From contig JARVGK010000003.1 of assembly GCA_029762535.1 (NCBI GenBank), positions 1-64,000 on the forward strand: a DNA stretch of 64,000 nucleotides. The letters are read 5' to 3'. The translations under genes and the position numbers were made by a program. A model generated the notes under the pieces. It saw only the letters and a list, made by a program, of their open reading frames with translations. It was not told the DNA's origin and ran no database searches. Source of the DNA: Thermoplasmatota archaeon. GTDB lineage: Archaea; Thermoplasmatota; Penumbrarchaeia; Penumbrarchaeales; Penumbrarchaeaceae. Positions 30,487-49,464 of the stretch are shown piece by piece (position 1 is the first letter of the stretch; each line of letters starts with the position of its first letter).

Positions 30487-31707
30487 TCAACCCATAACGA
30501 GATCGACCATCATCTCAAGAGGGAGTATCCCGGCCGGTATGCGGGGGAGCTTGGGAATGTAATGGGCCGCTTTGCCCGAGTCCGTTCCCACCTTACTCAT
30601 TCCCATCGATCCCAGCGGAGTGACGACCATGCAGGTGTCGTTGTATATCTCGACCCCTGAGCGCTCGATGTCATCAAGGATACCGGGATCCACAAGGGAT
30701 CTCGCCTCCCTCGACGTGAAGACCAGAAGCCTCTTGCCGTCCCGGACCCTCCTCTCACCTATGGCCTTCGCCAACCTGATGAAATCCTCGGGTCCGAACT
30801 GAGGGCAACCGAGAACGAACCCGTCTGCATCGGATAGGTCCTCGGGATAGATGTCGTCCTTGGCCCTTTCAAGGTCGGATATGTCCAGGTCCACTATCTC
30901 ACGGATGCGGTCCTCGGAATAGGCCATGTCCACCAGCTTCATCTCGGGGGTGATCCCCTCAACATGGTAAATGGCGTGCCCTCCCTTGGCGGCCATTGCG
31001 GCCCCCAGGTGTTTCATATCGGGTTTTGAGGAGTCATTCTTCAGTCCTTTGATGTAGCATACATCGGAGTTGTAATTGACGCCAAGGTACGCTCCAAGGA
31101 GATCGTAGTGGATATGGTCCATGTCGCCTTTCACATTGACCTCCAGGGTTGGGATCCGGTTCTCATCAAGATGCATCCCCCAGTTCGGGGTCTTCCCGAT
31201 GATGGCCGAGGCCAACGAGGAGATGCCTCCTTCCCTGTTGGTCCTGGCCCCCACCATGGAGTTGGCGTAGATGACGGCGTTGGACTCCCCCCAGGCGAGA
31301 TGGTCCCCGAAGGAGATCGGCTCCACCGCCCCGGGGATCTCGTAAGGGATGCAGGAGCAGTTGATGGTGATGCCCAGCTCCCTGAAGAGGAAGATGATCT
31401 CGATCTGCTTGGATGCGAACCCCTCTGGGATACCCATCTCCTTCCAGCGCTCAAGGTCCATCCCGGCTGGGTTGAGGCTCGAGGGGATCGAAGCCTTACC
31501 CCCGCCCTTGACAATGTCGCGAAGGAACATCAAAAGCGCCTCCCCGGCCGTTAGATAGGAGACACCCGATACGTGGGCGGAACGGATCGGTACTAGCCTG
31601 TCCGCCTCCTGAAGCTCCCCGTAATTGACGAGGATCCCCATGGCCTTGGTCCTTGCATGGGAGGGATCCCCCTGGAGGATCCCCTCCTCTTCCCTGGTCA
31701 GGTCCAT
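30487..31707 (-). CDS. aconitase X catalytic subunit (DUF521; phosphomevalonate dehydratase large subunit-like)
   Basis: AHVSGVSY, LNPAGMD, CSCIPY, AWGESNAVIYANSMVGARTNREG, GCPQ, DTCMVVTP, TDSGKAAHY. Confidence 0.9.
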   Translation of the reverse strand: MDLTREEEGILQGDPSHARTKAMGILVNYGELQEADRLVPIRSAHVSGVSYLTAGEALLMFLRDIVKGGGKASIPSSLNPAGMDLERWKEMGIPEGFASKQIEIIFLFRELGITINCSCIPYEIPGAVEPISFGDHLAWGESNAVIYANSMVGARTNREGGISSLASAIIGKTPNWGMHLDENRIPTLEVNVKGDMDHIHYDLLGAYLGVNYNSDVCYIKGLKNDSSKPDMKHLGAAMAAKGGHAIYHVEGITPEMKLVDMAYSEDRIREIVDLDISDLERAKDDIYPEDLSDADGFVLGCPQFGPEDFIRLAKAIGERRVRDGKRLLVFTSREARSLVDPGILDDIERSGVEIYNDTCMVVTPLGSMGMSKVGTDSGKAAHYIPKLPRIPAGILPLEMMVDLVMG

Positions 31708-31766
31708 GGATGGAGTATGATGGGAGTATTTTAAAACCTTGTCCCCGGGAATATTTTGGAATAAGG

Positions 31767-32050
31767 CGGACCCATGGGGATTCGATGCTTAGAAAATCCC
31801 TACGGATTTTCTGCATCTTGGGATCTCGAATTAAAGGAATGATGCTTTTGATCCCAAGAACCAAGGTTCGAATCCAAATGTACATTGTTCTTGAAAATAA
31901 TTAGAAAGCGGACCCATGGGGATTCGACTGTGAAAAATCCTTCGGATTTTCCACGTCTGGGATTCTTTAATCGATATGATATTGTTGTTGAATCCCAGAA
32001 CCCAAGGGTTCGAATCCAAATGTACAATGCTCCCGAAAATAATTAGAAAG
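31767..32050 (-). repeat. two 142-bp tandem units, each carrying the tRNA-Arg 3' end with a twin-hairpin insert
   Basis: cggacccatggggattcga at 31767, 31909 and 32051 (exact 142-bp period); shared ggttcgaatccaaatgtaca and gaaaataattagaaag. Confidence 0.9.
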
Positions 32051-32124
32051 CGGACCCATGGGGATTCGAACCCCACCCCCCGGCTCCGAAGGCCGGAAGA
32101 CTATCCTGGCTATCCTATGGGCCC
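32051..32124 (-). tRNA. tRNA-Arg (anticodon TCG), no intron, CCA not encoded
   Basis: GGGCCCA/TGGGTCC acceptor stem, CCGGC-CTTCGGA-GCCGG anticodon arm, TGGGG-TTCGAAT-CCCCA T arm. Confidence 0.93.
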
Positions 32125-32676
32125 GATGATTGGGTTATGGCCCTGTAGGGTCATAACCCTATTTTAATCGATTCATAAGCGGATCCCCAGGATATGTGTT
32201 ACTCCCGAAGGGATCGGGGGTGGGGAAAAAAGTCTCTGTGGTTGGATTCTTTCGGGGGAAGAATCCACCGGAAGACTATCCTGGCTATCCTATGGGCCCA
32301 TATTGGTTTGTAGTCCGAATGTAATGAGGACTATAAACCTTTATATGGTGATCCTTAGGCTGGATAGGCGGATCAAGCCATATTCGGGGTGGGGGAAAAG
32401 CCTCTGTACGGAGGCCGGATCGGGGATCCGGCCTGAAGACTATCCTGGCTATCCTATGGGTCCATGAACTATTGGATGGCCAAAGGCCGGCCAATAGTTC
32501 TATTTTTCGGACCCATAGACGATGGGGGATAGGCGGATCTAGCCGAGTTCGGGGTGGGGGAAAGAGTCTGTGTACGGAGGCCGGATCGGGGATCCGGCCT
32601 GAAGACTATCCTGGCTATCCTATGGGCCCGATGATTGGGTTATGGCCCGTAGGGATATAACCCAATTTCAATCAAT
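32125..32676 (-). repeat. three ~165-175-bp units, each carrying the tRNA-Arg 5' 29 nt plus hairpins
   Basis: gaagactatcctggctatcctatggg(c/t)cc at 32271, 32435 and 32601 (and at 32096 in the tRNA); shared ggggtggggg-aaa block. Confidence 0.9.
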
Positions 32677-33003
32677 TCATCTACCGCTTATACGGTACCA
32701 TGCGGGAAGCCCGATGTACCTGTAATGGTCCTCGATCTGCCTGGAATATATGGAGGCATAGAAGCGGTTGAAATCGGCGACATGAAGCAGTCCCTTCTTC
32801 GTGGGAACGACCTTGTAGGACCTCTCGTCCCTATCGACCGATATGTAGCCCTCACCCTCCAGATGCGAGAGCACCCTCTCCGTCATGTTGTGGTTTGACC
32901 TTATATGATGCATTATCTCCGATTTGGAAAGCCCGTCGATCCCTCCAGAAAGAAGCTGTTCGATCTTCGATCCGAGATCTTTCTGCTGGAGATCGATGCC
33001 CAT
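32677..33003 (-). CDS. winged-helix DNA-binding protein
   Basis: LSKSEIMHHIRSNHNMTERVLSHLEGEGYI..YKVVPTKKG. Start taken at ATG 33003. Confidence 0.75.
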   Translation of the reverse strand: MGIDLQQKDLGSKIEQLLSGGIDGLSKSEIMHHIRSNHNMTERVLSHLEGEGYISVDRDERSYKVVPTKKGLLHVADFNRFYASIYSRQIEDHYRYIGLPAWYRISGR

Positions 33004-33086
33004 CGCTGAGGCTAGAAGGTTCAACACGATGCAGGAATACAGGTTGATGTCCTTGTAGCTCTTTCCTTCCAAACCGCACACACCTC

Positions 33087-33932
33087 TCAGGGCAGCACTT
33101 TCGGGAGCTCTGGGACATACGGTATGAACTCGTATCTCCCGTTCGGAAGTTCCACGACGACCTGAACGTTCATCCGCTTCTCCTTCTTTGCCTTAAGGTA
33201 TATCCTACCCTCGACAAGTTTGTCATACAATTTCTCGTCGATCCCGTTGAACGACCCTCCCGCCTTGTAAAGCAGACATACCCTGCCCGGGTATATCTTC
33301 GATCTCGATGTGATATCCTCCAGGTCACTTATGATGGCCTTGAGGTCCTCTGAACTGGGGGATCTCCTGTACTCTCGTATGAAGATGGAGTATCCCGGAT
33401 ACCCGATCCTGAACAGCTTGGAGAAGAACGATGCCTTGTTGAGGATGAAAGCGCTGAAATGATGCCTCTTTCCCGACTTGCCCACGGCATACGAGTCCTT
33501 CCTGATGATCTCCGGCCTTCTGCTGATCATCCTCTTGAAGGTGAGATTGTTCTTCTTCAGATAGTTGAGGAACCGCTCCGTCATGTTCTTGCCTTTCGGT
33601 ATGGAATGTCCAGGGGGCCCCTCCCTCATGGCCTTGATGGCCGAATACCTGAAAGCGGCCGTCTTGAGAAAACGCCTCAAATGGGTGAGAAGCCGTGCGG
33701 TTATGATCCCGGTCACGAGAAGGGAGAGAAGTATCAGCACGAGGAACCAGTTGCCACTGGATAGCGTTGCAAGGAACAGCAGCAGGTAAAGTACAACTGA
33801 GAACCATACGAAATATAGCGCGAACTTTGATAGGAACAGTATCCTATCCGAGTTGTCGATTATCTCCTCGGCCAGGTTGAACGTCCCTGATATGGGGTCC
33901 TCGACCCCTCTGTATAGCTGCCATCGCTTCAT
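33087..33932 (-). CDS. two-TM membrane protein with a cytoplasmic domain, possibly restriction-endonuclease-like fold
   Basis: Two N-terminal helices; VGKSGKRHHFS resembles the archaeal GxSGxxHxFD motif. Confidence 0.6.
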   Translation of the reverse strand: MKRWQLYRGVEDPISGTFNLAEEIIDNSDRILFLSKFALYFVWFSVVLYLLLFLATLSSGNWFLVLILLSLLVTGIITARLLTHLRRFLKTAAFRYSAIKAMREGPPGHSIPKGKNMTERFLNYLKKNNLTFKRMISRRPEIIRKDSYAVGKSGKRHHFSAFILNKASFFSKLFRIGYPGYSIFIREYRRSPSSEDLKAIISDLEDITSRSKIYPGRVCLLYKAGGSFNGIDEKLYDKLVEGRIYLKAKKEKRMNVQVVVELPNGRYEFIPYVPELPKVLP

Positions 33933-33980
33933 TTCAAATCACCCAAGAGATCCTTTTCTGTGCTCTCTCGGCCCTCATCG

Positions 33981-34048
33981 TATTTAAACCCGTATGAAAC
34001 AAAGTTACGTAACTTTCTGTTAGAACAAGCTTTCGTTCCCTTATATAT
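33981..34048. promoter_or_regulatory. divergent promoter pair with a central 16-bp palindrome
   Basis: TTTAAATA on - (33981-33988), AAAGTTACGTAACTTT (34001-34016), TTATATAT on + (34041-34048). Confidence 0.6.
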
Positions 34049-38736: not shown

Positions 38737-39399
38737 ATGGAAACGATGAAAGGCGCTCGGTCGAGCGATATCGGCCCGGACCTGTTCCGGAAGCTGATCC
38801 AGGAATACTTCAGGACATGCGTCGATCTGGGGTGCGGGGACGGAAAATACTGCTACGAGATGGCGCGAACCGATCCCGATACGTTCTACATCGGGATCGA
38901 CGCCGACCGCAACGGTCTCGTCGAGTATTCAAGGAGGATAGTGAAAAAACCCTCGAGAGGGGGACTGAAGAACGTCCTCTATCTCATCTCGAACGTGGAG
39001 TCACTCCCCGAAGAACTCAATGGGATCGCGGATGAGGTCACGGTCATCCTGCCGTGGGGATCCCTTCTTCAGGGTATGGTGGGGTCCGATCCGCTGTATC
39101 TTTCTAACATCAGGAGGATCTCAAAGGACGGGTCACTCCTGAAGATCTATCTGAACTACGACGTCAAGTACGAGCCCGTCGAGATGGAGAGGAAAGGGCT
39201 GCCGGAGCTCACCGAGGGTTACGTTGAGGATCACATGGTCCCGGCATACGCTTCTGCGGGGATCCGGATCGCCGGATACCGCTTCATGGAGAACGAGGAG
39301 GCCAGATCGATCCCTTCGACCTGGACGAGGAAATTGGGTTTCGGCAGGGCCAGATCGACCCTTTTGATCGAGGGCGTCATCGAGGGGGGATCCCCCTGA
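38737..39399 (+). CDS. 16S rRNA (adenine-1408-N1)-methyltransferase, NpmA/KamB family homologue
   Basis: DLGCGDG, FYIGID, KKPSRGGLKNV, ESLPEELNGIAD, LPWGSLL, KGLPEL, STWTRKLGFGR match NpmA motifs as recalled; 220 aa from ATG 38737. Confidence 0.85.
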   Translation: METMKGARSSDIGPDLFRKLIQEYFRTCVDLGCGDGKYCYEMARTDPDTFYIGIDADRNGLVEYSRRIVKKPSRGGLKNVLYLISNVESLPEELNGIADEVTVILPWGSLLQGMVGSDPLYLSNIRRISKDGSLLKIYLNYDVKYEPVEMERKGLPELTEGYVEDHMVPAYASAGIRIAGYRFMENEEARSIPSTWTRKLGFGRARSTLLIEGVIEGGSP

Positions 39400-49389: not shown

Positions 49390-49464
49390 TGGAGCCACTG
49401 GTGGGAATTGAACCCACGACCTACTCCTTACCAAGGAGTCGCTATACCGCTAAGCCACAGTGGC
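49390..49464 (-). tRNA. tRNA-Thr (anticodon GGT), CCA encoded
   Basis: GCCACTG/CAGTGGC acceptor, ACTCC-TTGGTAA-GGAGT, GTGGG-TTCAATT-CCCAC, TCCA end. Confidence 0.95.

Follow-up and report, generated by a model that had tools for sequence, protein, structure and literature searches.

Short repeats linked to tRNA genes have been known in Escherichia coli since 1978. In that species, 22 such tRNA-linked repeat (TLR) units lie at ten loci, including the 178-bp repeats of tyrT (RtT) and rrA/rrB/rrF; they lie downstream of a tRNA or rRNA gene, within its operon, and their last 18-19 bp match the 3' end of that gene exactly, while most of them lack an explanation of origin and function (PMC8144298). 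Partial tRNA copies are also left by integrative elements that enter archaeal tRNA genes, with the intact gene remaining functional (10.1101/2022.07.05.498093). Here, we describe an array of tRNA-derived repeat units upstream of the tRNA-Arg(TCG) gene in a 64,000-nt stretch of DNA (hereafter the window; contig C36) from the 2.96-Mb, 102-contig, 93%-complete metagenome-assembled genome (MAG) of an uncultured member of the Thermoplasmatota, the archaeal host being indicated by the ABCE1/RLI and AcnX genes that adjoin the locus.

The array strings together partial copies of the tRNA in direct and inverted orientation, in a direct-inverted-direct layout, and it is one case of a lineage-wide, tRNA-anchored repeat system in which units are exchanged between tRNA genes. 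Like TLRs, the units are gene-less, adjoin tRNA or rRNA genes at many loci in numbers of one to five per locus, and carry an exact copy of a gene end; about 25 of the 40 tRNA genes in this genome match copies of their own ends, so that several loci are involved here as well. The units found downstream of tRNA-Arg(TCG), which repeat its last 20 nt at 100% identity with a period of 142, closely fit the definition of a TLR. The upstream units differ in that they lie on the other side of the gene and carry its first 29-32 nt rather than 18-19 nt of its 3' end, and in bringing along a promoter-like leader, a hairpin with a conserved apex and an inverted tRNA copy; the host also differs, being an archaeon with over half of its tRNA genes affected. 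No homology to RtT (RF00391) was detected in positions 30500-34000 of the window at E<=10. A full-text literature search returned no description of such arrays in archaea.

Direct and inverted copies at tRNA-Arg(TCG)

The intact tRNA-Arg(TCG) gene (32050-32124, minus strand; called by ARAGORN, and by Rfam RF00005 over 32051-32124 with 50 bits and E 5.5e-9) is the anchor of an upstream and a downstream array. The 552-nt gap between this gene and the winged-helix gene upstream of it holds the whole upstream array, which reads, in tRNA sense, as leader hairpin A' (32634-32666), unit 3 (32629-32508), leader hairpin C (32500-32466), unit 2 (32463-32348), leader hairpin B (32339-32305), unit 1 (32299-32177) and leader hairpin A (32162-32129), followed by the tRNA. 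An earlier note on this DNA, made from the sequence alone, had proposed three units that each begin with the 5' part of tRNA-Arg, and all three are present, on the minus strand, at the places it gave: unit 1 repeats tRNA positions 1-32 (32268-32299) with 32/32 identity, unit 2 repeats positions 1-29 with a G3A change (32435-32463; 28/29), and unit 3 repeats positions 1-29 (32601-32629; 29/29). The tRNA 5' copies start 175, 164 and 166 nt from one another and are separated by 135-143 nt of non-coding hairpin DNA. Outside the tRNA copy, unit 2 is 70% identical to unit 3 and 56% to unit 1; Tandem Repeats Finder reported nothing at the array, because the units are too divergent outside that copy. 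Support for the assembly comes from the probable source run, whose unitigs cover the array at 100% identity. Another study provides a 189-nt unitig over the tRNA copy of unit 2, hairpin C and part of unit 3, the sequence from this second study spanning 32440-32626 with differences at 5 positions.

In units 1 and 3, the region behind the internal hairpin and its linker repeats tRNA positions ~1-54 in inverted, degenerate and colinear form. The earlier note had recognized an inverted piece of the variable/T region, and this piece is the start of the longer copy: the alignment path runs through the variable-loop/T-stem strand (CCCCACCCC), an inverted anticodon arm that is still able to form a small hairpin, an inverted D-arm and the acceptor strand. 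For unit 1 (32180-32225; tRNA positions ~6-54), the alignment score is 33-35 (z 5.2), with none of 300 shuffles scoring as high, and for unit 3 (32508-32559, ending in CTATGGGTCC; positions 1-54) it is 30 (z 2.9, p 0.017). In unit 2, positions 32348-32411 comprise the linker, the C-rich tract and an inverted D-arm that has decayed. Of 22 upstream units examined at various loci and in relatives, 9 contain an inverted copy at p<=0.01, and the units of tRNA-Leu(CAG) and tRNA-Ser(TGA) contain nearly full-length inverted tRNAs (z 5-9).

An inverted copy, the leader hairpin behind it and the direct copy that follows add up to a single long, imperfect palindrome with the leader loop at its centre. 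Centred on leader A, which is flanked by the inverted copy of unit 1 and by the tRNA itself, the extended palindrome folds with z -2.7; centred on leader C, between the inverted copy of unit 3 and unit 2, it has ~35-bp arms that take in the initial 10 nt of the tRNA copy in unit 2 (z -4.95). Two kinds of symmetry centre therefore alternate along this chain of copies, the internal hairpin being a tail-to-tail junction and the leader hairpin a head-to-head junction.

This layout bears directly on the reading put forward in the earlier note, in which the units are tRNA-like RNAs that could be freed by RNase P and RNase Z or serve as decoys for anticodon nucleases or tRNA-targeting integrases. That reading drew on the ability of each unit's end to pair with its 5' end, and the RNA folds of the individual units bear this out in part, with an end-to-end stem in unit 1 (z -3.0) and unit 3 (z -3.9) and a weak one in unit 2 (z -1.5), which fails to close. 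A closing stem of 10-14 bp between the first and last bases is possible in units 1 and 3; in unit 3 it has 10 bp and is followed by a G in the place of the real discriminator base. The closing strand is, however, accounted for without any tRNA-like RNA, because it belongs to the inverted tRNA copy, whose far end pairs with the start of the unit. Furthermore, no unit gives a cloverleaf match, either to the tRNA covariance model at E<=10 or with ARAGORN, and the units have a CCC triloop, lack a T-arm and have no 7-nt anticodon loop, leaving nothing for an anticodon nuclease to cut. Colinearity in sense orientation with the 3' half of the tRNA is not significant either (z -1.3 to 1.4), and a sense pseudo-tRNA was rejected in favor of the inverted copy, as it reached significance in none of 15 units. 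We consider tRNA-like RNAs or decoys very improbable, and the alternative that the earlier note also named, fold-back duplication, is the better explanation. Apart from the tRNA gene itself, an Rfam search of 30500-34000 at E<=10 gave chance-level matches only, and C/D-box and other known RNA families were not found.

Two points go beyond the earlier note, namely the genome-wide extent of the pattern and a pair of downstream units at the same tRNA (31766-32049, minus strand; period 142), delimited by repeat families and inverted repeats and with two hairpins each. Each of these units starts with an inverted T-arm copy (32006-32022 and 31865-31880) and ends in the last 20 nt of the tRNA (31908-31927 and 31766-31785; 20/20), followed by a T-rich run, so that they are the mirror image, at the tRNA 3' end, of the upstream arrangement. 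They share 90% identity with the units that follow tRNA-Arg(CCG) on contig C15. A split or permuted tRNA gene was rejected as an explanation for the two arrays, given that copying ends at positions 29-32 in the upstream array and begins at position 56 in the downstream one, positions 33-55 with the anticodon being in neither, and given that the tRNA-Arg(TCG) gene is intact.

Both neighbors of the locus lie on the minus strand as well: the upstream winged-helix (helix-turn-helix, HTH) gene encodes 134 aa (32677-33081; weak match to Pfam HTH_45), and acnX lies downstream (30487-31707). The acceptor stem of tRNA-Arg(TCG) contains a G3.U70 wobble (GGGCCCA/UGGGUCC), the pair that marks alanine tRNAs for alanyl-tRNA synthetase; it is found in most relatives' tRNA-Arg(TCG) genes too, while genome G010 has G3-C70 and the copy in unit 2 has an A at position 3.

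Copies of tRNA ends across the genome and its relatives

For the remaining tRNA genes, a k-mer scan was made around all 40 ARAGORN tRNAs of the genome, counting copies of a gene's own ends within 1 kb. About 25 genes have such copies. Upstream, a gene's own 5' part (positions 1 to 19-44) is repeated at ~160-230 nt, and/or downstream its own 3' part (from ~55/56 or ~60/61 to the end) is repeated at ~100-190 nt. An inverted piece of the T-arm is often present 20-55 nt past the gene. The copies begin or end at, or close to, hairpins of the tRNA itself (~24-32, 37 and 44 upstream; ~55/56 or 60/61 downstream). These boundaries are also near tRNA positions where modifications block reverse transcriptases; an origin by reverse transcription was dropped, as no reverse transcriptase gene (PF00078, RVT_1) was matched in the genome.

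In a unit alignment, the upstream units of this genome fall into several sequence classes, which differ between tRNAs. One class comprises the units of tRNA-Arg (three isoacceptors), tRNA-Pro(GGG) and tRNA-Thr(TGT), in which the order is tRNA 5' copy, hairpin, linker CCTCCGTACAG(A/G), a short A/T run, the C-rich tract CCCCNCCCC, further sequence, and a leader made up of a TATA-like box and a hairpin. The second tRNA gene of the window, tRNA-Thr(GGT) (49390-49464), is also flanked by copies of its own parts, with positions 1-17, 29-57 and 58-73 upstream and positions 58-73 downstream.

Among relatives, the same layout is present at 9 of 11 tRNA-Arg loci. A strict search for pairs of tRNA-Arg 5' copies spaced 85-175 nt matched 5 of the 37 genomes of the class, from four genera and two families, which is a lower bound; the reversed control gave zero matches. 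The layout occurs in at least four genera of this family and in one further family. A pattern scan of the whole collection gave 20 matches, of which five are true units in Thermoplasmatota MAGs and the rest are chance matches without a hairpin, and the records with the same unit type carry Thermoplasmatota or Thermoplasmatales MAG titles. A shorter unit type of 100 nt occurs ~100-300 nt upstream of tRNA-Arg(TCG) in another family of the class (locus L011, genome G029). Its parts are a copy of tRNA positions 1-21, the hairpin GTTCAATC-aaag-GATTGAAC and an inverted tRNA start of 17 nt placed 12 nt before the next copy, and it follows the same direct-inverted-direct logic with unrelated sequence.

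Direct partial tRNA copies beside an intact gene are a known footprint of archaeal integration, and the units could accordingly be attachment-site (att) scars of integrative plasmids or viruses that once sat in the tRNA gene and were later deleted. Integrated copies in described cases are, however, 9-23 kb apart (10.1101/2022.07.05.498093), as opposed to 142-175 nt here, and the tandem arrays at this locus lie on both sides of the gene and contain neither cargo nor an integrase or a remnant of one between the copies. The start of the downstream copies in the T-loop would fit the att reading, the T-loop being a favored crossover site of tyrosine integrases. Still, about 25 tRNA genes show this layout, which occurs on both sides, inverted copies and shared cores would not be expected from independent integrations, and viral contigs gave no match. 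We therefore regard att scars as a highly unlikely source. The only tyrosine recombinase matches in the genome are one full-length gene on contig C25 (271-aa frame), far from any array, and one fragment on contig C53. The latter (C53:7817-8068, minus strand; PF00589, 126-aa frame) lies ~500 nt behind a tRNA-Arg(TCT) gene (C53:7237-7314) that has no repeat units, and is possibly what remains of an integrated element of the classical kind.

Comparisons between loci show the units to be dynamic. The non-tRNA part of unit 2 (135 nt) is 86.9% identical to the unit of tRNA-Arg(CCG) on contig C15, while tRNA-Arg(TCG) and tRNA-Arg(CCG) share 76% identity over positions 1-29, and a 34-nt block of hairpin and linker is found in identical form upstream of tRNA-Pro(GGG). 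It follows that units are moved or converted from one tRNA locus to another. The direct copy always matches the local, species-specific tRNA, such as the unusual GGATAGCCAGGATAGTC of this genome or GGGCCT..TAGTCT in G004. In the comparison across related MAGs, which the earlier note had suggested, unit number varies. In G010 (locus L002), the winged-helix orthologue (71% identity by tblastn) is followed by ~65 nt and then by tRNA-Arg(TCG), without any upstream unit, making this an empty orthologous site; in G019, a decayed unit lies upstream of the tRNA. At the strain level, one 151-nt contig from another study (run X5) joins leader B and its tRNA copy directly to the tRNA body, skipping 175 nt, and so represents a strain without unit 1, as seen in a single contig with a depth of 2.4.

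Internal hairpins, leaders and promoter-like boxes

The internal hairpins and leader hairpins noticed earlier fold far better than shuffled sequences throughout (z -3.9 to -7.8). In units 2 and 3, the internal hairpin has the form AGGCCGGATC-GGG-GATCCGGCCT (32412-32434 and 32578-32600), whereas that of unit 1 (H1, 32240-32269) is imperfect and has a five-C loop; folded as DNA, the internal hairpins reach z -4.7 and -3.9. Across units, the apex T-C-CCC-G-A is near-constant over stems that are wholly different (GGCCGGA, GGAAATC, GACCTTTC, GTGTTTTTT, TCCCGCT). In the hairpin alignment, 98.8% of the stem cells are paired and both sides have changed in 8 of 10 pairs, which none of 500 shuffles matched. 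The invariance of the apex in this alignment is somewhat circular, as its members were partly gathered by searching for the apex motif; among the class-I units of this genome, which were found independently through their tRNA copies, 8 of 10 have the exact apex, one has five Cs and one has CCCTGA. The genome contains 14 perfect hairpins with this apex, 10 of which lie <=700 nt from a called tRNA gene, and an 11th adjoins an N-masked stretch framed by copies of a tRNA 3' end.

At this last site (C7:38470-39090), the 78 masked nt (38949-39026) have tRNA 3'-end copies with a period of 221 on one side and the apex-type hairpin (39066-39090) on the other, and most likely represent a further tRNA gene with units. 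Downstream of tRNA-Gln(CTG) (C25:125641-125911), three identical hairpins CTAAAATTTC-CCC-GAAATTTTAG recur with a period of 124; they have the apex of the upstream-unit hairpin, but follow the tRNA and point the other way. Derivation of the stems from the local anticodon stem fits units 2 and 3; it was rejected as a general rule, since the same stem is found at tRNA-Pro.

The leader hairpins, of which A, C and A' were called as inverted repeats, fold as DNA with z -5.0 to -7.8 (A, -4.95; B, -6.9; C, -7.8; A', -5.3), and 0 of 200 shuffles were as good. Leader A lies between a TATA-like box (TTAAAATA, at -43 of the real tRNA-Arg(TCG)) and the tRNA 5' end, is the centre of the longer palindrome that extends into unit 1 and the tRNA, and is of a type that is also found in relatives without intact units (L003). 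Leader A' is the outermost element of the array and starts ~10 nt past the stop codon of the HTH gene. Together with its tRNA copy (32596-32680), it is 91.9% identical over 86 nt to leader A and the tRNA start (32091-32176); with a degenerate TATA-like box (6/8), it is a weakened copy of A. The 5' arm of leader B, in tRNA sense, contains the B recognition element (BRE)/TATA-like sequence AAAGGTTTATAG, and leaders of this type, with a GGTTTATAG box and a hairpin, directly precede the intact tRNA-Arg(CCG) and tRNA-Arg(GCG) genes (contigs C15 and C5). A promoter for every unit is thus only partly borne out: leader B is of the tRNA-gene type, the box of A' is weaker, and that of C is poor (5/8). 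Good TATA-like boxes accompany 20 tRNA genes in this genome, and in 13 of these 20 the box is placed at -34 to -48 relative to the start of the mature tRNA.

In this respect, the array recalls the spacer promoters of eukaryotic ribosomal DNA (rDNA), which are tandem duplicates of a promoter and the first transcribed bases, variable in number, upstream of a highly expressed RNA gene. The likeness lies in the tandem duplication, in variable number, of promoter and gene start upstream of an RNA gene; the differences are the other domain of life and the other polymerase, and here the inverted copies, the hairpins in each unit and the uneven promoter quality. Some units keep a full tRNA-type promoter and likely give rise to short non-tRNA transcripts, as predicted from their boxes. 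By sequence, either strand could be the transcribed one, because the leader regions are nearly symmetric (TATAAA..TTTATA) and a T-run follows each leader hairpin on the plus strand.

These properties invite the explanation that the units are small-RNA genes, which would produce either a sense RNA, consisting of the tRNA 5' fragment and the C-loop hairpin, or an RNA from the opposite strand that ends in a perfect 29-32-nt antisense to the tRNA 5' part, the leader hairpin and the terminator-like T-run. The TATA-like boxes, which sit at -38 to -48, a placement shared with other tRNA genes in the same genome, speak for it, as do the B leader type shared with intact tRNA genes, the conserved hairpin apex with its fully compensated stems, and the plus-strand T-run after every leader hairpin. 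A weak hint of RNA-level constraint on the plus strand comes from the leader hairpins, whose arms, read by eye, show G.T wobbles on the plus strand, with A.C mismatches on the minus strand, by 4 to 0. Selection for a match to the tRNA would also explain why each copy tracks its tRNA, and an orthologous unit is retained across genera. On the other hand, the T-run is absent from relatives' units and is therefore not a conserved terminator, the TATA-like box of unit 2's leader is poor, the unit in G019 has decayed and the orthologous G010 site is empty, the sequence classes of units differ between tRNAs, and Rfam gave no match. From these sequence features, we consider it possible, though rather unlikely, that the units are kept by selection as tRNA-tied small-RNA genes, giving an antisense RNA with a U-run end or a 5'-fragment RNA with an invariant C-rich loop. 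If this were so, they would constitute a system, common to the lineage, for regulating tRNAs or guarding tRNA genes, and it would be renewed by copying tRNA ends.

Origin of the units

The explanation that we favor, with about even confidence, is that the array is a DNA-level repeat architecture anchored on the tRNA gene, built by fold-back duplication at hairpins and subsequent recombination between the copies of tRNA ends. A direct-inverted-direct layout with its junctions at hairpins is the known product of template switching at inverted repeats. A new unit would thus arise when replication or repair switches template, in a fold-back, at a hairpin-forming palindrome at the edge of a tRNA gene. 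Unequal recombination between direct copies could then alter the number of units, and units could be copied between genes when a break in the 5' part of one tRNA is repaired from a related, unit-bearing tRNA locus. Gene conversion, or repeated re-creation of units, would keep the direct copy matched to the local tRNA. This fold-back model needs no function for transcripts from the units.

Described relatives of such a process are quasi-palindrome template switching and duplication/inverted triplication/duplication events, which are sporadic rearrangements mediated by inverted repeats. They share with the array the direct-inverted-direct segment, the junctions at or next to hairpin-forming inverted repeats and the independence from a dedicated enzyme. 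They differ in that the archaeal layout recurs at dozens of tRNA genes, persists across divergence at the genus level, has a constant apex and spreads between loci. The scar of repeated fold-back duplication that the earlier note had offered as its second reading agrees well with the direct and inverted copies around two palindromic centres, but the array is more than a passive local scar, because units are exchanged between loci, their copies track the tRNA, and the pattern is genome- and lineage-wide.

Several observations weigh against the fold-back explanation. The inverted copy of unit 2 is not significant in the shuffle test (z 1.3). The near-constant apex TC-CCC-GA over replaced stems, together with the equally conserved flank CCTCCGTACAG, counts against neutral fold-back, because neutral scars should not retain the apex while swapping stems; arm-to-arm templating in DNA palindromes can mimic the covariation of the stems, yet leaves the constant apex unexplained. 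Behind the eS31 gene, the orthologous tRNA-Arg(CCG) locus keeps exactly one unit in several genera, its layout preserved and its sequence changed, and this retention hints at selection. The constant apex and the retained orthologous unit are unlike a purely neutral process and leave real room for a small-RNA function or a hairpin-binding enzyme.

Such an enzyme is central to the proposal that the units are non-autonomous mobile elements, put into tRNA genes by a protein encoded elsewhere. The candidate would be a recombinase that recognizes folded hairpins, in the manner of integron integrases acting on attC, or HUH transposases acting on repetitive extragenic palindromic (REP) sequences and IS200 ends, and the inverted tRNA copy would be a targeting or binding arm. 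Consistent with this proposal are the presence of the same core beside different tRNAs, each time with a locally matching tRNA copy, the hairpins at fixed positions with a constant apex, the concentration of apex hairpins near tRNA genes (the 10 of 14 close to a called tRNA, and the 11th beside the N-masked stretch), and unit numbers that differ between relatives and strains. The enzyme searches point the other way. The Y1/HUH transposase family (PF01797) had no match in the 93%-complete genome while control genomes were matched, for which reason an IS200/REP-type mechanism was rejected; reverse transcriptase is likewise without a match, and of the tyrosine recombinases there is only the full-length gene far from the arrays and the fragment. 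Duplicated tRNA parts range over 20-44 nt upstream and 15-22 nt downstream, which a target duplication of fixed size would not do, and no distant pairs of tRNA fragments that bracket a larger element were found in the genome. The 30-nt hairpin core had no exact match in 2.9 million viral contigs, and a viral or plasmid source was set aside on this result. Taken together, mobile elements appear to us a doubtful explanation.

The repeats also have a practical side, in that the units break metagenome assemblies at tRNA genes. For the family itself, the findings show a much richer version of tRNA-linked repeats than that described in E. coli, with units on both sides of most tRNA genes and exchange between genes. 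This makes the family a natural system for asking how such repeats originate, whether by template switching at hairpins or through a recombinase, why units track their tRNA, and whether regulatory RNAs are made from them.

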